The notes beneath the pieces were generated by a model, which did not search any database, was not told the origin of the DNA, and saw only the letters and a program-made list of their open reading frames with translations. This document shows, in pieces, positions 1,823 through 27,127 of a stretch of DNA of 64,000 bases. Position 1 is the stretch's first letter; every line of letters starts with the position of its first letter. Both the position numbers and the translations under genes were made by a program. The stretch is from Escherichia coli (GTDB lineage Bacteria > Pseudomonadota > Gammaproteobacteria > Enterobacterales > Enterobacteriaceae), in the NCBI RefSeq assembly GCF_017348835.2, contig NZ_CP071375.1; one strand, given 5' to 3'.

Positions 1823-2479
1823 ATGCCATCTACACGCTATCAAAAAATCAATGCCCATCACTATCGCCATATATGGGTCGTTGGTGATATTCATGGTGAA
1901 TATCAGTTATTACAATCCCGCTTACATCAACTCTCTTTTTTCCCCGAAACCGACTTACTTATTTCTGTCGGCGATAATATTGATCGTGGGCCGGAGAGTC
2001 TTAACGTCCTGCGCCTGCTAAACCAGCCCTGGTTTATCTCCGTTAAAGGCAACCACGAAGCAATGGCGCTGGATGCGTTCGCGACCGGCGATGGCAATAT
2101 GTGGCTTGCCAGCGGTGGTGACTGGTTTTTCGATTTAAATGATTCAGAGCAAAAAGAAGCTACAGATCTGTTGCTGAAATTCCATCACCTTCCACATATT
2201 ATTGAAATCACTAACGACAACATAAAATATGTCATCGCACATGCAGATTATCCGGGGAGTGAATATCTCTTTGGTAAAGAAATAGCGGAGAGCGAATTAC
2301 TCTGGCCTGTTGATCGTGTGCAGAAATCGCTTAATGGCGAGTTACAACAAATAAACGGCGCTGATTATTTTATATTTGGACATATGATGTTTGATAACAT
2401 TCAGACGTTCGCTAACCAGATTTATATTGATACCGGATCGCCGAAAAGCGGGCGGCTGTCATTTTATAAAATAAAGTAA
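1823..2479 (+). CDS. pphB: Serine/threonine protein phosphatase 2 (calcineurin-like metallophosphoesterase)
   Basis: 218 aa with the metallophosphatase motifs GDIHG, GDNIDRG and GNHE; lies immediately downstream of mutS as in E. coli. Confidence 0.85.
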   Translation: MPSTRYQKINAHHYRHIWVVGDIHGEYQLLQSRLHQLSFFPETDLLISVGDNIDRGPESLNVLRLLNQPWFISVKGNHEAMALDAFATGDGNMWLASGGDWFFDLNDSEQKEATDLLLKFHHLPHIIEITNDNIKYVIAHADYPGSEYLFGKEIAESELLWPVDRVQKSLNGELQQINGADYFIFGHMMFDNIQTFANQIYIDTGSPKSGRLSFYKIK

Positions 2480-2519
2480 TGAGGCCGGGTAAAGCAAAGC
2501 CACTACCCGGCACTTTTTA

Positions 2520-2756
2520 TTAGCGCTTACCTTCCGCCAGCAGCGGCGGGATGCTCGGCACCATTGGCGCGTCATCAATATCTTTCTGCGTCATGCGGAA
2601 CGCTTCGGGATAATGTTCGCGGCTGGTACGGCGCAGCGGTTCGGTATCGCGCCAGGTATAAAGGCAATGCTGGCACTGATATACCGTCCAGACATCTTTC
2701 ACCGGCGATTTCGCCATCACTTCAATCTGTTCATCGGCACAACGTGGACAAATCAT
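2520..2756 (-). CDS. Small subunit of a UbiD-type phenolic acid decarboxylase (BsdD/VdcD-like), Cys4 zinc-ribbon-like
   Basis: 78 aa with CPRC...CQHC; last gene of a three-gene minus-strand operon after the UbiX-like and UbiD-like genes (B-C-D order). Confidence 0.65.
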   Translation of the reverse strand: MICPRCADEQIEVMAKSPVKDVWTVYQCQHCLYTWRDTEPLRRTSREHYPEAFRMTQKDIDDAPMVPSIPPLLAEGKR

Positions 2757-2766
2757 CTTGTTCTCC

Positions 2767-4194
2767 TTATTTACGTGCGGCCAGCATAGCGGTCAGTTTT
2801 TCAGCCCAGGCTTTGGTTTCCGGCAAATCCACCACCGGCTGGCTGTAGTGACCACGGTTGTCCGGGGCGACAGGCGTGGTGGCGTCGATAATCAGCTTGT
2901 CGGTGATCCCCGCCTGGCTTGAGCCAGGGTCGAGTTCCAGCACGGACATATTCGGCAACTGCACCAAATCCCCTGCCGGATTTACTTTCGAGGAGAGCGC
3001 CCACATCACCTGCGGCAGGTTGAACGGGTCAACGTCTTCATCGACCATAATCACCATCTTTACGTAGCCCAGACCGTGCGGCGTGGTCATCGCACGCAGG
3101 CCCACCGCGCGGGCAAAGCCGCCGTAGCGTTTTTTGGTGGAGATAATCGCCAGCAGGCCGTGGGTGTACATGGCGTTTACCGCCTGCACTTCCGGGAACT
3201 CGGCTTTCAGTTGTTGATACAGCGGCACGCAGGTGGCAGGCCCCATCAGGTAGTCGATTTCGGTCCACGGCATGCCGAGGTACAGCGATTCGAAAATCGG
3301 CCTGGTGCGGTAAGAGACTTTATCGATGCGCACCACGGTCATGTTACGCCCGCCGGAGTAGTGTCCGGTAAACTCACCGAACGGCCCTTCGATTTCGCGT
3401 TTACGGCTTTCGATGACCCCTTCGAGGATCACTTCTGAACCCCACGGCACATCAAAACCGGTCAGCGGGGCGGTGGCGATCGGGTACGGGCTTTCACGCA
3501 GCGCGCCTGCCATTTCATACTCAGACTGATCGTATTTCAGCGGCGTGGCCCCCATCAGCGTGATGATCGGATCGTTACCGAGCGTGATCGCAATCGGCAG
3601 ATCTTCACCGCGCTCTTCTGCTTTATGCAGATGCAGGGCGATATCGTGCATCGGCACCGGTTGCAGGCCGAGCTTACGCTTGCCCTTCACTTCCATGCGG
3701 TAGATGCCGACGTTCTGCTTGCCGAAGTTATCCGGGTCGAGCGGATCGCGGGAAACCACGCAGGCTTTGTCGAGATAGAAACCGCCATCGCCATCGTTTA
3801 AACGAAACAGCGGCAGGATATCGAACAGGTTAATCTCGTCGCTATCAACGGTGTTCTGCGCCCAGGCAGGATTGGCGCGGCGCTCCGGGGCAATCGGGAA
3901 GTTATCCCAGCGGCGGATAAACTCATCAATCTGCTTTTTGACCGGGGTGTTTGGTGGCAGGCCAAGGGAAATCGCGTGGTTCTGCCAGGAACCGATGGTA
4001 TTCATCGCCACGCGGGCATCGGTAAAGCCGCGAATATTATCAAACCACAGCGCGGGCGCGCCGTCGCCGATACGCCCGGTGGCGTTAGCTGCTGCTGCCA
4101 GATCCGGTTCCGCGTTCACCTCTTCGCTGATTTTCAGTAACTGGCCGTGGTCATCAAGCGCCTGTAAAAAGCTGCGTAAATCATCAAATGCCAT
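2767..4194 (-). CDS. UbiD-family (prFMN-dependent) decarboxylase, BsdC/VdcC-like
   Basis: 475 aa with overall UbiD-family character; its start overlaps the stop of the upstream UbiX-like gene at 4194. Confidence 0.85.
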   Translation of the reverse strand: MAFDDLRSFLQALDDHGQLLKISEEVNAEPDLAAAANATGRIGDGAPALWFDNIRGFTDARVAMNTIGSWQNHAISLGLPPNTPVKKQIDEFIRRWDNFPIAPERRANPAWAQNTVDSDEINLFDILPLFRLNDGDGGFYLDKACVVSRDPLDPDNFGKQNVGIYRMEVKGKRKLGLQPVPMHDIALHLHKAEERGEDLPIAITLGNDPIITLMGATPLKYDQSEYEMAGALRESPYPIATAPLTGFDVPWGSEVILEGVIESRKREIEGPFGEFTGHYSGGRNMTVVRIDKVSYRTRPIFESLYLGMPWTEIDYLMGPATCVPLYQQLKAEFPEVQAVNAMYTHGLLAIISTKKRYGGFARAVGLRAMTTPHGLGYVKMVIMVDEDVDPFNLPQVMWALSSKVNPAGDLVQLPNMSVLELDPGSSQAGITDKLIIDATTPVAPDNRGHYSQPVVDLPETKAWAEKLTAMLAARK

Positions 4195-4933: not shown

Positions 4934-5341
4934 ATGGCGTTACGAAAAAAAGCGTTCCATCAGTTACGACAGCTTTTTCAGCAGCACACGGCTCGCTGGC
5001 AGCACGAGTTACCTGACCTGACCAAACCACAGTATGCGGTGATGCGCGCCATTGCTGATAAGCCTGGTATCGAACAGGTGGCACTGATAGAAGCAGCAGT
5101 CAGCACCAAAGCAACGTTGGCAGAAATGTTGGCAAGAATGGAGAATCGTGGCTTAGTCAGACGTGAACATGATGTCGCTGACAAGCGGCGTCGCTTTGTC
5201 TGGCTGACTGCCGAAGGAGAAAAGATACTTGCTGCGGCGATACCGATTGGTGACAGCGTGGATGAGGAATTTTTGGGGCGTTTGAGTGTAGAAGAGCAGG
5301 AGCTGTTTATGCAGTTGGTGCGCAAGATGATGAGCACATAG
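4934..5341 (+). CDS. MarR/SlyA-family transcriptional regulator
   Basis: 135 aa with a winged-helix MarR-like core; divergent from the decarboxylase operon, suggesting it regulates it. Confidence 0.8.
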   Translation: MALRKKAFHQLRQLFQQHTARWQHELPDLTKPQYAVMRAIADKPGIEQVALIEAAVSTKATLAEMLARMENRGLVRREHDVADKRRRFVWLTAEGEKILAAAIPIGDSVDEEFLGRLSVEEQELFMQLVRKMMST

Positions 5342-18889: not shown

Positions 18890-21484
18890 TCAATCAACCT
18901 TGCCAATCAATCCCTCCCTGGCCGAATACCCGCAACTTTCGTCATCAGTGACTAAAATCACGTTTGCCATCTCCGGATCTTGCCGTTGTTCAACACACCA
19001 CTGCCTGAACGCTTCCCCTTCCAGTAAAGAAAATTCATCCCGATGTTTTTTCCACCAGCTTCGACGCACTCTGGCAACGCTCATTTCCCATGCGTGAGCA
19101 CCGCTGGCATAAGGCTTCACCACACCGTCAATACAGGTAGCCAGCCACAGGGAAACAGACTCTTCAGCCAGACGTGTCGACAGCTTTTCCGGGAGGTAAT
19201 CGTTGATATTGGCGGCATAGCCGGGCCTGAAGTTCAGCATAAACTTTTTAGCCATTGCGCGATCGCAGTAATATTTGCCCACTTGCTCCTGCTCGCTGCG
19301 GGCAAATCCTTCCGGCATTACCACGTCCTCACCGTAGACGGATTCAATAAGAAGCCGGGCTGCGTGTGGCATCTGAATAGCGCCTTGCTCACGCAATACT
19401 CGCTGCGTCAGCCAGATTCGCCCATGATCGGGGTAGACATATGCGCTGTTACGCATCGCACTGCCAAACCATTCGTCACCCGGAGAGTCGTCCCAGACGG
19501 GGGCCAGAATCAGCAATTCAGGAGGGGAACGCTCGTCTTTTCCATCACGCTTTAACTGACCATTAATATCGCGAATATGCCGTTGTAATCGCCCCGCTCG
19601 CTGGATCAGCAAATCAATGGGGGCCAGGTCGGAGATCATTTCGTCCAGGTCAATATCCACACTTTGCTCAATTACTTGTGTACAAACAATGACTTGAGAT
19701 GATCTTTTTAAACTACAATTTTTACCAAAGCGTGCCAGCGTTTCCGTTTCAATTCGCTGGCGATCGCTAAAAGCAAAGCGGCTATGAAAAAGTGAAAGGC
19801 TGGAAGCAGGAATGACGCCGCGGGCAAGTAACTGACGATAAACCTTAATAGCGTCATCGACAGAATTCCGGATCCAGGCGATGCATTTCCCCTGACTTAC
19901 CGCTGATTCGATACGCGCAATACATTCTTGTTCGCTATGAAGCCAACCCACGCTCACGCTACGCTCAACGTCTTTGCGCGTCGCTACCCGGTGCGAATGC
20001 ACATCGGATTTCGTGACATGCGTCAGCCAGGGGTAATCATCCTTTTCCAGGAACGGAGCTTCTTGCTGGCCCTCTGTGCCACGCGCAAAGGCGGCGACAA
20101 GTTTGTCGCGCTGCTGTTGAGATAACGTAGCAGAAAGCAAAATGACGCTGTTTCCGCCACGCACCTGTCGCTCAATCAACCCTTCAAGAATGTACGACAT
20201 GTAAGCGTCACAGGCGTGGATCTCATCAGCCAGCAGGATTTTGTTACTCAACCCCAGAAGCCGCAGATTATTATGTTTAAACGGCATCACTGCCATCATC
20301 GCCTGATCCAGCGTGCCGACGCCAATTTCAGCCAGTAAAGCCTTCTTGTTACTGTCGGCAAACCAGGCTGCACATCCTTGACTGAACGCTTGTTCATCCG
20401 GTTCTTCTGACCCGACTAAATCACCGGACCAGAGTGATTCATTAAAGCGTTCCATTAATGTACGGGCGCTGTGTGCCAGCACCAGGCTGGGGCGGGATTC
20501 TGGCGAAAAGAAAGCAAGCCAGGTTTTGACCAGCCGATCGTACATGGCATTGGCCGTTGCCATTGTTGGCAGGCCAAAAAACAAACCCTGTGCTTTCCTC
20601 GCAGCCATCAACCTGTGCGCCAGGATAAGCGCCGCTTCTGTTTTACCTGCGCCAGTCACGTCTTCCAGAATAAATAACTTTGGCCCTGGCTGGCTGATAT
20701 CCAGATCCAGCACCTTTTGCTGTAATGGTGTCGGGTGCTCAATAAAAGGAAACAGCGTATTAATTCCGGTGAAAGGTGCGGTTTCTGCTTTTGGAGGAAA
20801 GACGGTTAAGGCGTTTTGAGCCTGAACTAAAGTTTTCTGCCAGTAATCTTTAATATCCATTGGGTGTGCGACGCGTGGAAAAAATCGCGTTGACGAACCC
20901 GTCCAGTCTGCGAGTACGACTGTTGCAGAGATATACCAGGAAAGTTGTTTTAAAAGTTCAACGCCCTCGTCATCATCCCAGAATGTGGGAATCTCTATGA
21001 GCGGAAACAGTGCCTTGATTTCAAGGAGAAAATCTCGCGCGGCAGCTTTGTCTTCAGGCAGAAAATTATCCAGCTCATCAATACGGTCAGGTGGTCGACC
21101 ATGATGCCCGGTAGTTATGGACATCCACATCTCTATTACACGTGTAAGTTTACGAGAAGAGAGTGAAGATGAAGGAAGCAACTCCTCACATTCACTTAAA
21201 TAATAATTCCACAGCCAGTAACCCAGCGTTGAATGAGAGATCTTTTCGTAATTCTTTCTGGAACCTTCCGGAATCTTGAGTTCAGGGGCCAGGTAAAGTT
21301 GCTGAAAAGAGCGGGCAAATTTTCCAATATCGTGCCAGCACAACAACCAGGCGAAAAATTGAGCCGCCTGTTCCTTGTCAGAAATCCCTAATTGACGAAA
21401 ATAATCAGCCAGCCCGAAGCAATTTCTTTTAACCATTAAATAGCCCATCGCGGCCACATCCAGCGAATGCCAGCAAAGAAGGTG
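18890..21484 (-). pseudogene. cas3: cas3 (type I-E HD nuclease/helicase), codon 36 to stop; 5' end severed by IS629
   Basis: HD motif HDIGKF, Walker A TGAGKT, DExH box DEIHACD and helicase C-terminal region present. The frame is open upstream right up to the IS boundary at 21484 with no native start; the ORF-track start at 21457 is a GTG. Confidence 0.9.
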
Positions 21485-21538
21485 TGAACCGCCCCGGAAA
21501 TCCTGGAGACTAAACTCCCTGAGAAAGAGGTAAACAGG

Positions 21539-21865
21539 ATGACTAAAAATACTCGTTTTTCCCCCGAAGTCCGTCAGCGGGCGATTCGTATGGTTCTGGA
21601 AAGTCAGGATGAATATGACTCACAGTGGGCGGCAATTTGTTCCATTGCCCCAAAGATTGGCTGTACGCCGGAGACTCTGCGTGTCTGGGTTCGCCAGCAT
21701 GAGCGGGATACCGGGAGTGGTGATGGTGGACTCACCACCGCTGAACGTCAGCGTCTGAAAGAGCTGGAACGTGAAAATCGTGAACTGCGCCGCAGTAACG
21801 ATATCCTTCGCCAGGCTTCCGCTTATTTTGCGAAGGCGGAGTTCGACCGCCTCTGGAAAAAATAA
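21539..21865 (+). CDS. IS629-like OrfA (HTH transposase N-terminal protein)
   Basis: 108 aa, [22 protein letters not shown]..., HTH plus leucine zipper typical of IS3-family OrfA. Confidence 0.9.
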
Positions 21866-22752
21866 TGCCACTGCTGGATAAGCTGCGTGAGCAGTACGGG
21901 GTCGGACCGGTATGCAGCGAACTGCATATTGCCCCGTCAACGTATTACCATTGTCAGCAACAGCGACATCATCCGGATAAACGCAGTGCCCGTGCGCAGC
22001 ACGATGACTGGCTGAAGAAAGAGATACAGCGCGTATACGATGAAAATCACCAGGTATACGGTGTGCGTAAAGTCTGGCGTCAGTTGTTACGGGAAGGTAT
22101 CAGAGTGGCCAGATGCACTGTGGCACGTCTCATGGCAGTTATGGGACTTGCCGGTGTTCTCCGGGGTAAAAAGGTCCGCACTACCGTCAGCCGGAAAGCC
22201 GTTGCCGCATGCGACCGCGTAAACCGTCAGTTCGTGGCAGAACGTCCAGACCAGTTGTGGGTGGCTGATTTTACCTGGGTAAGCACATGGCAGGGCTTCG
22301 TTTATGTGGCGTTCATCATTGATGTGTTCGCCGGATACATCGTGGGATGGCAGGTCTCATCATCCATGGAAACAACATTCGTGCTGGATGCACTGGAGCA
22401 GGCGTTGTGGGCCCGTCGGCCGTCCGGCACAATCCATCACAGTGATAAAGGTTCTCAGTATGTATCGCTGGCCTACACGCAGCGGCTTAAGGAAGCCGGA
22501 TTACTGGCATCAACAGGGAGTACTGGCGACTCGTATGACAACGCGATGGCTGAGAGCATCAATGGTCTTTACAAAGCGGAGGTAATACACCGTAAGAGCT
22601 GGAAAAACCGGACAGAAGTGGAACTGGCCACACTAACGTGGGTGGACTGGTATAACAATCGACGATTGCTGGAAAGGCTGGGCCATATTCCTCCGGCAGA
22701 AGCAGAAAAAGCTTATTATGCTTCCATCGGAAATAATGATCTGGCAGCCTGA
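21865..22752 (+). CDS. IS629-like OrfB (DDE/rve integrase-core transposase)
   Basis: 295 aa rve domain; in the -1 frame relative to orfA, with an A6 run at the overlap. Confidence 0.9.
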   Translation: MPLLDKLREQYGVGPVCSELHIAPSTYYHCQQQRHHPDKRSARAQHDDWLKKEIQRVYDENHQVYGVRKVWRQLLREGIRVARCTVARLMAVMGLAGVLRGKKVRTTVSRKAVAACDRVNRQFVAERPDQLWVADFTWVSTWQGFVYVAFIIDVFAGYIVGWQVSSSMETTFVLDALEQALWARRPSGTIHHSDKGSQYVSLAYTQRLKEAGLLASTGSTGDSYDNAMAESINGLYKAEVIHRKSWKNRTEVELATLTWVDWYNNRRLLERLGHIPPAEAEKAYYASIGNNDLAA

Positions 22753-22794
22753 GTTCACAGATAAAACACTCTCCAGGAAACCCGGGGCGGTTCA

Positions 22795-22902
22795 GTGATA
22801 GTCGTCACCCCCTTCTTTCTCGTCGCGTCGGGTTTTTCCCCAGAAATCAAAGAAAGTCACAATATTTTTATCCTTCAGTAAACTTAAAGGATATTTACGC
22901 AT
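22795..22902 (-). pseudogene. cas3: cas3 5' fragment (first 35 codons) separated from the gene body by IS629
   Basis: Minus-strand translation from ATG 22902 gives MRKYPLSLLKDKNIVTFFDFWGKTRRDEGGDDYH, continuing in frame across the target duplication into ...LLCWHSLDVAAMGYLMV at 21484. Confidence 0.8.
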
Positions 22903-23094
22903 ATTTTAAAAATTATCTGTGATATATATCAGCCAATAAAACATTTATATTGTGAATAAATTTATGATTTTCATTTGAAATTCATAATAATAAATAGAGA
23001 CAATATATTCACATAAAAAATATAAATTTAAAAAAGGGTGCAGGAGACCAAACCATCACAATTCAATACGCGGGGTTTTACCCCCGCGTGGTGG

Positions 23095-23247
23095 CTACTT
23101 CTTCGATTCGTAAGCGAGAACAGCCTTAAACTCCATACCACGTTCCCTGATACTCAACTCACACAACGAGTCGCCTACCATCAGCGTGAATCCCAGTACT
23201 GTACAACACAGTACGATGATTGCCACAAGGGCATATTTTGTCAGCAT
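23095..23247 (-). CDS. Hok/Gef-family type I toxin (50 aa; below the ORF-track length cutoff)
   Basis: Minus-strand [53 protein letters not shown]: one transmembrane helix followed by the Hok signature SLCE...AYE. Confidence 0.7.
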
Positions 23248-23308
23248 GTCTGTGTAAGTTCACAGAGATATTGCAATTGCCTCCGGATAAGTAAGGGGAG
23301 ATTGCACT

Positions 23309-24739
23309 ATGCAAATGCAGCATCTGATGGTTGGCTATCCTAAGTACTACCAAACGGCCGATTATGCGTTGAGGCTTTCAGTGATGGCTGATATAGCAAC
23401 AATGAGAATGAAGGCTCTGCACTTCTGGGATAAACACGGTATTTCTGCAGCTTCTGAAGCCTTTGGCGTGTCCTGCCGCACGCTTTACTGGTGGCGTCAG
23501 TTACTGAACAAGGAAGGACCTGAGGGGCTAATCCCGCACAGTAAGGCACCTCTGGTGCGACGAAAAAAACACTGGCATCCCGATGTGCTGAAAGAGATTC
23601 GACGCCTCAGGACAGAGCTGCCGAACCTCGGTAAAGAGCAGATTTTTGTTCGCCTGAAGCCCTGGTGCGAACAGCGCTATCTGGCCTGTCCGAGTGTTTC
23701 CACCATCGGCAGAATGATCGCTGCCGCACATGATAAAATGCGGATGATACCTGTGCGTCTGGGATCGCGGGGGAAGGCACTGCTTGTCAAAAAGCGGTCT
23801 GCCAAACCCCGCAGGCCAAAGCACTACCGCCCGGTAAAGACAGGTGAGCTCATTGGGATGGACGCCATTGAGCTCAGAATGGGCGAACTGCGTCGCTATG
23901 TCATCACCATGATCGACGAATGCAGCAATTACGCGCTGGCTGTGCCGTCACTCAACAGTGATATCGTCAATCACTTCTTCAGCCGCGCAGCCCGGTTGTT
24001 CCCGGTCGGTATCAGCCAGATAATCACAGATAACGGAAAAGAGTTCCTGGGAAACTTCGACAAAACGCTGCAGGAAGCCGCTATCAAACACCTCTGGACC
24101 TATCCCTACACGCCAAAAATGAACGCTATCTGTGAACGTTTTAACCGGACGTTAAGAGAGCAGTTTATTGAATTTAATGAGATTTTACTCTTTGAAGATC
24201 TGGCGCTATTTAACCAGAAGCTGGCGGAATATCTGGTGCTGTATAACAGCAAAAGACCCCACAAGGCGCTCGCACTAATGACGCCCGTGGAATATATTTT
24301 AAAAGAGAATAAAAATTGCAATATGTGGTGGACCCATACAATGTCTTGCCTCCCTGCAAAGAAGAGACTAACATTCGAATTGCTTAGGTTCGAACGCTGG
24401 CCTCAGGTTGATAGAAATATCGCCTGGGGCTTTTGTCCATCTGGAACCTCGCGAATGCTTAACGCCAGACAGCCTCAAGCACCCGACGCCATTCTATACC
24501 TGATAATTCTTCCAGCGGCGTTCACGTTTAAAATCAGGAATGCTGCTCGCAAAATAAAAACGCCCCCATCATTTCTGACAGAGGCGTTTAATTTATCCGG
24601 CAATATTTACCCTTCGTGTAACCCACATTCCCTTTTTAAGCCAAAGAAACGCGTTTCTTCTTCCGCCATGCCAGGTTCCCATTTACGGGTTGTATGGGTA
24701 TCACCGACCGATAAATATCCTTCGTCCCATAATGGGTGA
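23309..24739 (+). mobile_element. rve-domain (DDE integrase-core) transposase ORF, IS481-like; probably a 3'-truncated IS remnant
   Basis: HTH near the N-terminus (FGVSCRTLYWWRQ), catalytic core with GMDAIE...TDNGKEF...CERFNRT, ending about YNSKRPHKALALMTPVEY near 24300. The ORF then runs ~140 low-complexity codons without a stop and overlaps the cysH 3' end. No terminal inverted repeats recognised. Confidence 0.5.
24553..24590 (-). terminator. Putative intrinsic terminator downstream of cysH
   Basis: Minus-strand hairpin AAACGCC...GGCGTTT followed by TTTTATTTT about 20 nt after the cysH stop; the loop is long, so the hairpin is weak. Confidence 0.4.
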
Positions 24740-25341
24740 TATTTCAGGCCATGCTTTTGCAGATACTGATATATCGTTCGGTTATCCCAATCGATAATCG
24801 GTAGCACTTTAAATACGCCACGCTGAATTGTCAGCACCGGTAAATTGGCGCGGCTGCCGGATTGTTCGCGGCGCAGGCCAGCAAACCACGTTTGCGCGTT
24901 AAGTTCTTTCAGCGCCCGGTTCATCGGTTCGACTTTGTTGATGTCATTGTACTTTTCAATGCCTTCAACGCCCTGCTCCCACAGTTTTCCGTAGCGTGCT
25001 TCCTGCCAGGCTGCGCTTTCGGTAGCACGGTACACTTTCAGGTTGAGCTTGAGTTTGTCCGTTAACTCGTCAATAAAGCGGTAGGTTTCCGGGAACAAGT
25101 AACCGGTATCGGTGAGGATCACTGGAATATCCGGGCGAATCTGATTCACCAGATGCAGGCTCACCGCCGCCTGAATGCCGAAGCTGGAAGAAAGCACATA
25201 TTCACCGGGCAGATTATCCAGCGCCCAGGCTACGCGGCCTTCAGCGTCCAGTTTTTCCAGTTGGGCGTTAGTTTCCGCCAGCGCCAGAATGCGATCTACC
25301 TTCGGCAGTTCGTTCAGGGCGTTTAGATCGAGTTTGGACAT
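24607..25341 (-). CDS. cysH: Phosphoadenosine phosphosulfate reductase
   Basis: 244 aa from [17 protein letters not shown]; the ORF-track start is 51 codons upstream. Confidence 0.95.
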
Positions 25342-25362
25342 AGATTCCTCACTGTTTGCCTT

Positions 25363-25398
25363 GCCTGATGCGACGCTCACGCGTCTTATCAGGCCTAC
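25363..25398. repeat. REP (repetitive extragenic palindromic) element between cysH and cysI
   Basis: GCCTGATGCGACGCTCACGCGTCTTATCAGGCCTAC. Confidence 0.6.
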
Positions 25399-25414
25399 AA
25401 GACCGGGCTGATGG

Positions 25415-27127
25415 TTAATCCCACAAATCGCGCGCCGGATCGAGCACCGGGCGAATGATGCCCGCACGCACCGTAAAGTCGCCGAAGCCTTCACCCGCTT
25501 CGCGCTCTTTCGCCCAGCGCCCTATCAGTTCATCAAGCGACGCCAGGATTTCCGGCTCGGTGATGTTTTCTTTATACATCCGTGGGATACGTGTCCCAAT
25601 ACGGTTGCCGCCAAGATGCAGGTTGTAGCGACCCGGCGCTTTACCCACCAGCCCCACTTCCGCCAGCATCGCGCGACCACAACCGTTCGGGCAGCCTGTT
25701 ACACGCATCACGATATGCTCATCGCTGACACCATGTTTCGCCATTAAATTATCGATGTTGTCGATAAAAGACGGCAGGAAACGCTCCGCTTCCGCCATCG
25801 CCAGCGGGCAAGTCGGGAATGACACGCAGGCCATTGAGTTTTCACGCTGCGGCGTGACGGCATTCATTAACCCGCTCTCTTTAGCGATCTTCTCGATCTT
25901 CGCTTTCTCGCTTTCCGGCACACCGGCGATGATCAGATTCTGGTTCGCCGTAATGCGGAAATCACCTTTGTGGATCTTCGCGATCTCCAGCAGGCCGGTT
26001 TTCAGCGGACGCCCCGGATAATCAAGGATGCGACCATTTTCGATAAACAGCGTCAGGTGCCAGTTATCATCAATGCCCTTAACCCAGCCAATACGATCTC
26101 CACGTCCGGTGAACTCATACGGACGGATCGGTTCAAATTTGATCCCCGCGCGACGTTCCACTTCCGCTTTAAATGTCTCAACACCCACGCGCTCCAGCGT
26201 GTATTTGGTTTTGGCATTTTTACGATCGGTACGGTTACCCCAATCGCGCTGAGTCGTCACGACGGCTTCCGCCACCGCCAGGGTATGCTCCAGCGGCAGA
26301 TAACCAAACTCGCTCGCCGTGCGGGCGTAGGTTTTCTTATTACCGTGTTCGATGGAAAGCCCGCCGCCCACCAGCAGGTTAAAGCCTACCAGCTTGCCGT
26401 TTTCGGCGATTGCCACGAAGTTCATGTCGTTGGCATGCAGATCGATATCGTTCTGCGGCGGGATCACTACCGTGGTTTTGAATTTACGCGGCAAATAAGT
26501 CTGACCGAGGATCGGTTCTTCATCGGTGGTGGCGACTTTTTCCTGATCGAGCCAGATCTCCGCATACGCGCGGGTACGCGGCAGCAGATGTTCAGAGATT
26601 TTCTTCGCCCATTCATACGCTTCCGCGTGTAGCTGCGACTCGTAAGGGTTCGAGGTACAGAGTACGTTACGGTTCATGTCGTTAGCGGTCGCCAGCGCAT
26701 CAAGACCGACTGAGTGCAGCATCTGGTGCACCGGTTTGACGTTCTTTTTCAGAATGCCGTGGAACTGAAACGTCTGGCGGTTGGTCAGGCGAATGCTGCC
26801 ATAGATGGTGTTTTCACCGGCAAATTTGTCGATCGCCTGCCACTGTTTAGTGGTAATCACCCCACCCGGCAGACGGCAGCGCAACAGCATCGCGTGGCGC
26901 GGCTCCAGCTTCTGTTCAGCACGTTCGGCGCGGATGTCGCGGTCATCCTGCTGATACATGCCGTGGAAGCGGATCAGCAGGAAGTTGTCGCCCTTAAAGC
27001 CGCCGGTCAGACCGTCGTTTAAATCTTCCGCAATGGTGCCGCGCAGGTAGTTGCTTTCAAGCTTCATGCGCTCGGCGTCTGTCAGTTTTCCTTCGACCAC
27101 TAAAGGCCCTGGATGTTTTTCGCTCAT
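25415..27127 (-). CDS. cysI: Sulfite reductase (NADPH) hemoprotein beta subunit
   Basis: 570 aa; siroheme/4Fe-4S cysteine motifs (CPNGC). Confidence 0.95.

Follow-up and report, generated by a model that had tools for sequence, protein, structure and literature searches.

A chromosomal hokX/sokX locus of Escherichia coli split by an IS481-family insertion sequence, and a statistically supported preference of this element group for promoter-like targets

The 64,000-nucleotide (nt) stretch of Escherichia coli DNA analysed here (contig NZ_CP071375.1 of assembly GCF_017348835.2, referred to as the window) holds at 23095-23247 a small open reading frame (ORF) that is very likely hokX, the toxin gene of the chromosomal hokX/sokX type I toxin-antitoxin locus, separated from its regulatory half by an insertion sequence (IS) of the IS481 family. 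On the evidence of the nucleotide sequence the locus is physically split and this copy is a disrupted member of the hok/sok group: the IS lies between the hok Shine-Dalgarno (SD) sequence and the ATG start codon, and the leader and the antitoxin RNA gene are found on its far side. The gene itself is already known, at a known locus, and is disrupted in a known manner; the target preference of the IS is the sole potentially new part. The features of the locus, ordered along the plus strand, are listed below.

23030-23094, minus strand: hokX 3' untranslated region (UTR), with a stem-loop after the stop codon (about 23068-23089), an fbi-like segment at 23036-23049 and a terminal U-tract
23095-23247, minus strand: hokX ORF, ATG to TAG, 50 codons; Pfam HOK_GEF, RefSeq WP_000956458.1
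HokX protein: hydrophobic helix at about residues 5-24, followed by the conserved SLCE...AYES tail
23246-23251: target-site duplication, copy 1, ATGTCT on the plus strand and AGACAT on the hok strand; the 'AT' of the hok start codon falls within it
23252-24340, plus strand: IS481-family IS, 1,089 bp, with ends GTGTAAG... and ...CCCATACA; 75% nucleotide identity to ISKpn28
23309-24739, plus strand: transposase ORF of the rve/IS481 type, starting 61 nt beyond the hok ATG
24341-24346: target-site duplication, copy 2, ATGTCT
24341-24484, minus strand: displaced hokX mRNA leader, with tac-like 5' end GGGUGCUUGAGG, leader hairpins, SokX target and the native SD GGAGG at 24349-24353
24346-24374, plus strand: putative sokX promoter, with -35 TTGCCT (24346-24351), a 17-nt spacer and -10 TAACAT (24369-24374)
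24382-24440, plus strand: sokX antisense RNA gene, matching K-12 b4701 at 57 of 59 positions; its RNA is antisense to hok mRNA nt 45-103
24384-24440, minus strand: mok-like leader ORF, with SD GAGG and its ATG at mRNA nt 45, where complementarity to SokX begins; 18 codons long here

The ORF by itself is weak evidence, as short frames are common here (84 ORFs of at least 20 amino acids (aa) in 5 kb). We consider hokX a genuine gene because of its Pfam match, its RefSeq identity across lineages and its database relatives. The match to Pfam HOK_GEF (PF01848, E 6.3e-10) is full-length, residues 5-46 covering positions 1-42 of the 42 in the model, and a profile search against NCBIfam returns Hok models alone (HokA, NF007290, and the Hok subfamily, NF007279). 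Positions 20501-25600 of the window are 100% identical to E. coli PE164, where exactly this ORF is annotated as WP_000956458.1 under the RefSeq name 'Hok/Gef family protein', nothing more specific. The same protein stands at the same position in seven further genomes (MB15, O157:H7 86-24, 2017-19-1CC, UPEC 536, Ecol_867, FDAARGOS_1288 and E2348/69) and is annotated in every intact locus examined, despite differing lineages and neighbours. The database holds 318 relatives at E <= 1e-3, and PF01848 is present in all but two of the 120 relatives listed. Nearest among the named paralogues are HokE-type proteins, with 78-92% identity over the full 50 aa; the R1-type plasmid Hok shares 44% over 41 aa, in an alignment that keeps SLCE and LAYES. 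An initial annotation of the window, made from the letters alone, had proposed an unlisted 50-aa Hok-family gene with an intact frame at this place. The ORF is confirmed on the minus strand and encodes the same protein as the uninterrupted loci, and profile searches, which might have placed the peptide in another family, lead to Hok models alone in NCBIfam and to HOK_GEF in Pfam. 'Unlisted' holds relative to the supplied ORF track with its 60-aa cut-off; the public RefSeq annotation does have the gene.

The insertion point is 4 nt 5' of the hok ATG. Mapping by BLAST to strain MB15, which carries an uninterrupted locus, places window positions 22795-23251 at 1496-1953 and 24341-25600 at 1948-3207, so that the two segments are contiguous there with a 6-bp overlap. 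When the IS and one copy of the duplication are removed in silico, the remaining 623 nt are collinear with the 624-nt intact locus, and the IS-free reconstruction is no different from natural intact loci. Promoter, leader and toxin ORF no longer form one contiguous transcription unit in the window: 1,089 bp of IS stand between the leader with its SD and the ATG, and the hokX ORF is now preceded by IS sequence (...ACTTACACAGAC-ATG) devoid of an SD. A transposase ORF on the opposite strand at the 5' side of the toxin gene had been pointed out before, and it is indeed there. The accompanying statement that the IS occupies the 5' regulatory side is right, with one refinement: the IS is directly 5' of the ORF, and the regulatory elements have been displaced beyond it, not lost. 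Likewise, what had been described as a nearby IS is present, and more exactly it cuts the SD from the ATG, the duplication taking in the 'AT' of the start codon.

The IS itself has an 11-bp inverted-repeat core, ATATTGCAATT, positioned 17-27 nt from each tip. Plasmid copies labelled 'IS481 family transposase' in RefSeq are 99.5% identical to it, and intact copies of 1,095 bp carry the same label; compared with the latter, the window IS has an in-frame 6-bp deletion (LALA to LA). Against the NCBIfam model NF033577 (transpos_IS481) the transposase scores 212.5 bits with a cut-off of 224, the scored copy having the 2-aa deletion and a read-out tail. This tail is a general feature: in none of the copies examined does the transposase frame meet a stop codon within the IS, and it closes in target DNA. 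Here it reads 133 additional codons past the right end, across sokX and the hok leader, to 24739.

The displaced leader is recognized by the Rfam model RF01794 ('sok'), which spans the hok mRNA leader from the 5' end to the hok AUG. The match scores 105 bits (gathering threshold 59) and covers model positions 1-157 of 157 at 24335-24484, on the same strand as the hokX ORF. Opposite to it runs sokX, annotated in the K-12 reference (b4701) as a 59-nt RNA on the strand opposite hok; a terminator-like hairpin of -22.7 kcal/mol is predicted for it. The promoter was placed by reference to K-12, whose annotated sokX 5' end falls 7 nt after the -10 element. Its -35 element begins 5 nt from the IS end, and both -35 and -10 are intact. 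Judged from these sequences, sokX and its promoter are intact in this strain. The initial suggestion was to look for mok, Sok and tac at 23248-23500. Those positions belong to the IS, and the sole Rfam match there is a meaningless sub-threshold snoRNA; the elements are located instead at 24341-24484, 1.09 kb further upstream past the IS.

Without the IS, the hokX mRNA would extend from 24484 to 23030 (360 nt). Its 5' end was set at position 1 of the Rfam model, and the hok promoter could not be confidently placed. The minimum free energy (MFE) of the reconstructed mRNA is -130.6 kcal/mol, against -110.0 +/- 5.5 for shuffled sequences (z = -3.74). In both the MFE and the centroid folds the two ends are predicted to pair (nt 1-6 with 349-354 and nt 9-14 with 341-346), the fbi-like segment at 23036-23049 (nt 341-354) thereby facing nt 1-14 of the 5' end. 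In the R1 paradigm, closure of this kind is the hallmark of full-length hok mRNA in its inactive state. On the 3' side, homology among genomes with a differing downstream neighbour (cas3 in either orientation, or iap) stops right after CCCTTTTTT, and from this stop after the terminal CCCUUUUUU we place the 3' border of the module at about 23030. A hok mRNA-like structure, the absence of which had been suggested as grounds for doubt, is present in predicted form: the RF01794 leader and a tac/fbi-type closure, divided by the IS.

By homology with R1 hok/sok, the mRNA of about 360 nt from an uninterrupted locus would be held translationally inert through pairing of its 5' and 3' ends. Trimming at the 3' end would allow it to refold, so that the mok-like leader frame and then hok become translatable, and the 59-nt antisense SokX would bind the leader and block that translation. 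Integration of an IS481-family element at a point 4 nt before the hok ATG, with duplication of 6 bp, has left two parts: the hokX ORF with its 3' UTR, having neither promoter nor SD nor any of the leader, and, 1,089 bp away, a part that contains the hok promoter and leader and also sokX, which is intact along with its own promoter. Because the ORF now lacks promoter, leader and SD, hokX is probably silent. SokX would then most likely be an orphan antitoxin, functionally like the K-12 state where just sokX remains.

The locus has been named hokX/sokX in two publications (PMC7232551 and PMC12736100), hokX for the first time in E. coli B (PMC7232551). A 'hok/sokX' module is reported to adjoin cysH in 90% of uropathogenic strains, K-12 keeping sokX alone (PMC12736100). 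In our comparison the leader/sokX segment is found in 5,425 of 5,426 complete E. coli genomes, and the exact hokX-IS481 junction in 35 of the 5,426, including enteropathogenic E2348/69 and O103:H2 strains. E2348/69 shares the same duplication, but it has the 1,095-bp version of the IS, a different flanking haplotype and iap instead of cas3 as neighbour. K-12 has no hokX ORF. Its homology to hokX-bearing strains breaks off after ...AGACATG (minus-strand positions 276-290 of the cysH-cas3 spacer), no more than 1 nt from the IS site. There the sequence TGTAT follows, equal to the first 5 nt of the IS right end, yet a search for an IS scar at this place gave no significant remnant, the best BLAST match being 10 nt (E 0.35). 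TGTAT may be a coincidence or be left over from an IS-associated event that replaced hokX and the region upstream of cas3. A derivative of E. coli B has a variant hokX (WP_000956460.1) contiguous with its leader, an IS421 element (IS4 family) about 190 bp downstream, near the expected mRNA 3' end, and a small CRISPR array and iap beyond IS421. Because IS421 sits downstream of the ORF, inactivation in E. coli B is a separate event. The likeness to IS-silenced chromosomal hok loci suggested by the initial annotation is supported: loci inactivated in this way are on record for K-12, and hokX of E. coli B is another (PMC7232551).

To see where else this IS group inserts, a pattern scan for the IS right end was used, which gave at least 120 metagenome loci and 41 loci from a viral collection. 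Pooled with earlier copies and the window, these amount to at least 172 ends, and grouping them at 80% flank identity gives 57 contexts; all counts of contexts given here and below are among the matches listed. Perfect 6-bp duplications are seen for the window IS and in 13 independent contexts. A TTG occupies positions +6 to +8 after the right end in 29 of the 57 contexts, with at most 2 at each other offset from 1 to 20 (binomial P about 4e-37); where the duplication is perfect, the TTG is there in 12 of 13 contexts. Excluding the ten hok-type flanks leaves TTG in 19 of 47 (P about 2e-22). Nine of these 19 non-hok contexts also have TAnnnT at a spacing of 16-18 nt, where control offsets give a mean of 1.1 and a maximum of 3. 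The TTG always lies on the flank towards which the transposase reads (the right flank), and none of 23 left flanks has it. These figures give good statistical support to a nucleotide-precise and orientation-specific preference for -35-like elements, Sok promoters especially.

The hok sites themselves form a substantial part of the collection. In 11 of the 23 contexts whose left flank could be used, a Hok-family ORF begins at a distance of 1-14 nt from the IS left end; among them are HokX, HokD-like, HokA-like and R1-like proteins and one divergent form. Rfam hok-leader matches abut the IS right end in four of the representative hok contexts scanned. The IS is found upstream of hokD in two chromosomes, and ISKpn28 upstream of an R1-like hok on a plasmid; at these sites the duplication TCTCCT equals the hok SD (AGGAGA). 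The right end is followed by N5-TTGCC at hokX, at hokD, at the R1-like plasmid hok and at one non-hok plasmid site, and at the three hok sites the hexamer reads TTGCCT. The IS also sits before small-RNA genes other than hok/sok: its commonest non-hok target is directly upstream of the small-RNA gene STnc100 (Rfam RF02076, 108 bits), which starts 12 nt after the IS end (5016-5222 in a sampled locus). Taken together, the position of the IS at hokX is probably non-random, and the -35 element of the Sok promoter is probably among the commonest targets of the IS group. We lean towards regarding the E. coli/Klebsiella IS481 subgroup to which ISKpn28 and the window IS belong as a promoter-seeking IS that inserts in one orientation, its stop-less transposase frame pointing outward, exactly 5 bp upstream of a -35-like TTG, with Sok promoters as its favourite target, cutting hok off while sparing Sok. 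The IS repeat core itself contains TTGCAA, which might be relevant to recognition of the TTG, although this is speculation.

A different cause for the TTG was considered, namely that TTGA would supply a TGA stop to the transposase at codon 3. It was rejected as the main cause, since TTGA is found at 9 of the 29 sites and most have TTGC. A scan of species-representative genomes for the IS right end was uninformative: it gave 2 matches, both on contigs of metagenome-assembled genomes, one from a Lachnospiraceae bacterium and the other from a sponge symbiont, taxa that do not resemble the enterobacterial hosts otherwise seen. In the literature we found single instances and no general rule of IS targeting (ISfinder was outside this search). 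They are the 'insertion of ISKpn28 upstream of hokG' on IncHI5 plasmids (PMC6339943) and ISKpn28 co-localised with FlmC (PMC12248084).

Some further copies deserve mention. The N terminus of the Klebsiella 'hokG' protein (72 aa) consists of the last residues of a related transposase, and the frame continues from there into Hok. At the DNA level, the IS right end in Klebsiella pneumoniae abuts GAT-ATG of hok, 3 nt before the ATG, at a site adjoining mutS. This is 1 nt from the E. coli site and in the opposite orientation, the sole opposite case, with a contig end hiding the other side of the IS. In the galF-yegH region of many E. coli genomes a 93%-identical IS copy with a different left tip stands between a Klebsiella-like galF and yegH; it has no TTG at +6 to +8.

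A number of points weigh against reading the locus as a silenced but otherwise standard hok/sok system. The NCBIfam scores of the ORF are below the curated cut-offs (53 against 89 bits for HokA NF007290, 39.5 against 73 for NF007279), so by these models the product is neither HokA nor a member of the subfamily modelled by NF007279 (PRK09738). Lethality of HokX on expression is plausible from homology and the strict conservation of the protein, and no experiment on its toxicity was found in the literature. We infer the silence of the gene from what the ORF has lost, and read-through from the hok promoter over the 1.1-kb IS could in principle reach the ORF, which would still be without an SD. 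A consensus promoter scan of the minus strand of the IS left end found no outward promoter, which is weak evidence since the scan also missed the sokX promoter. The leader provides another concern. In MB15, K-12 and UPEC 536 the mok-like ORF has 34 codons and runs to a TGA overlapping the hok ATG (ATGCTGA), whereas in the window and five other alleles examined, including O157:H7 and E2348/69, it has 18 codons and ends in TAA or TAG. The stop in the window allele is TAA, 42 nt before the hok ATG. Because the mok-like frame is polymorphic, the mok-hok coupling of R1 may not apply unchanged at hokX, and the locus might have been functionally altered already before the IS arrived. A further frame of 12 codons, with an ATG or GTG at nt 111, closes in all cases at the TGA that overlaps the hok ATG.

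Two observations on the leader stand apart from this question. The variable bases of the mok-like ORF sit in a hairpin loop within the SokX target. In addition, an 81-aa E. coli allele (424 contigs) joins the leader frame MDKSPRRYFYQPEAYVRTQTIRMLVSSLQG in frame to HokX; a small deletion between SD and ATG apparently accounts for the fusion.

With these points in mind, the explanation that would do away with the gene altogether can be treated briefly. The ORF has just 50 codons and its NCBIfam scores fall short, so it could be asked whether it is a chance frame or belongs to another family of small toxins (Ldr, Ibs, TisB or ShoB). The full-length HOK_GEF match, the exclusive NCBIfam matches to Hok models, the strict conservation of the protein across E. 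coli lineages and a hok-leader covariance model above its gathering threshold in cis make this extremely improbable; the RF01794 and HOK_GEF matches and the PF01848-bearing relatives effectively refute it. A more serious suggestion is that hokX is still expressed, through an outward promoter in the IS left end or by read-through, the IS having deregulated the toxin instead of silencing it. The ORF and its 3' UTR are intact and the protein is that of uninterrupted loci, and at the hokD and R1-type sites, where the duplicated 6 bp are the SD itself, the hok ORFs retain an SD after insertion. IS481-family elements are moreover known to drive neighbouring genes in Bordetella. At hokX, however, the SD is stranded beyond the IS and no SD-like sequence occurs within 15 nt of the ATG, the promoter scan (for what it is worth) came up empty, and unregulated Hok would kill the cell, whereas 35 complete genomes from several lineages stably maintain the allele. 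We therefore judge continued expression to be quite improbable.

The position of the IS might also be attributed to selection alone: insertions would be random, with survivors being those that inactivate hok yet spare Sok, and the IS would have no intrinsic preference for hok. Elements of different families (IS150, IS186 and IS421) likewise adjoin chromosomal hok genes (PMC7232551), which points to some selective or permissive component. Selection would nonetheless tolerate many sites, such as within the ORF, in the leader upstream of Sok, or downstream, whereas the IS end is placed exactly 5 nt before the -35 TTG at hokX, hokD and R1-like hok despite differing duplications. The same N5-TTG recurs in the 19 of 47 non-hok contexts, of which the site upstream of STnc100 is one example, nearly half of them with a correctly spaced TAnnnT, and orientation is invariant in the TTG-bearing contexts (right flank always, none of 23 left flanks). 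Selection by itself is thus an unlikely explanation, and a target preference of the IS remains the favoured reading of its position at hokX.

The locus lies in the cysH-cas3 region, with the gene order cas3 (minus strand), an IS3-family element, a cas3 5' fragment, hok (minus), the IS481-family element, cysH (minus) and cysI (minus). Two further features concern cas3.

21485-22794, plus strand: IS3-family element, 1,310 bp, with a 3-bp duplication and an ALIL frameshift pseudoknot at 21820-21936; it interrupts cas3
22795-22902, minus strand: detached first 36 codons of cas3, setting the original cas3 start at 22902

The distance from the hok stop codon to the original cas3 ATG is 192 bp here and 193 bp in the uninterrupted MB15 locus, in good agreement with the roughly 190 bp given previously. 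Because the IS3-family element interrupts cas3 after codon 36, the type I-E cas3 of this strain is probably inactive. The cysH-cysI spacer contains a palindrome resembling repetitive extragenic palindromic (REP) sequences at 25362-25394, with a sub-threshold naRNA4 match (33.6 bits, gathering threshold 59.5).

Compared with the E. coli hokX/sokX described for the cysH-iap/cas3 region, the window locus has the same position, the same protein and a sokX differing from that of K-12 at two of 59 positions, but it is split at the SD/ATG junction by the IS481-family IS, while E. coli B has IS421 downstream and K-12 is without the ORF. With R1 hok/sok it shares a Hok-family toxin, an Rfam-matching leader, an antisense RNA to that leader, a predicted tac/fbi closure and a Sok promoter overlapping the hok SD region. 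It differs in being chromosomal and interrupted, in the toxin sequence (the 44% identity given above), and in its short and polymorphic mok-like frame, where R1 mok is long and overlaps hok. The closest named paralogues, K-12 HokE and the 'HokE/HokG' proteins of Klebsiella, Enterobacter and Citrobacter (78-92% identity), are encoded at other chromosomal sites, and hokX is a distinct locus beside cysH. K-12 hokA, hokC and hokE are IS-inactivated according to Pedersen and Gerdes (1999), as that work is cited in PMC7232551. The pattern is common to the window locus and these K-12 loci, the IS being close to but outside an intact toxin frame. The window IS belongs to the IS481 group, however, not to IS150 or IS186, and in several hok paralogues this group stands at exactly the same nucleotide distance from the Sok -35. 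A precedent is known from IncHI5 plasmids, where ISKpn28, a related IS (75% nucleotide identity), is inserted directly upstream of hokG; it was described there as a feature of single plasmids and not in terms of a target preference, and the window IS represents a distinct E. coli subgroup of 1,089 bp with the 6-bp in-frame deletion.

For annotation purposes, the ORF at 23095-23247 should be grouped with the leader and sokX at 24341-24484, and the extension of the 'transposase' ORF to 24739 is a read-out into sokX. What the 60-aa ORF cut-off had hidden is a known small toxin gene, here probably a disabled remnant accompanied by an orphan antitoxin RNA. If the proposed preference is true, the association of IS elements with hok genes, noted long ago, would for this IS reflect target choice and not selection alone, and the IS would systematically disarm hok killer systems on plasmids and chromosomes alike. 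Such targeting by an IS common in enterobacteria would help explain the frequent IS neighbours of hok loci and would give a natural route to the loss of post-segregational killing on resistance plasmids. The IS would also offer a tractable model of promoter-directed target selection by a DDE transposase.

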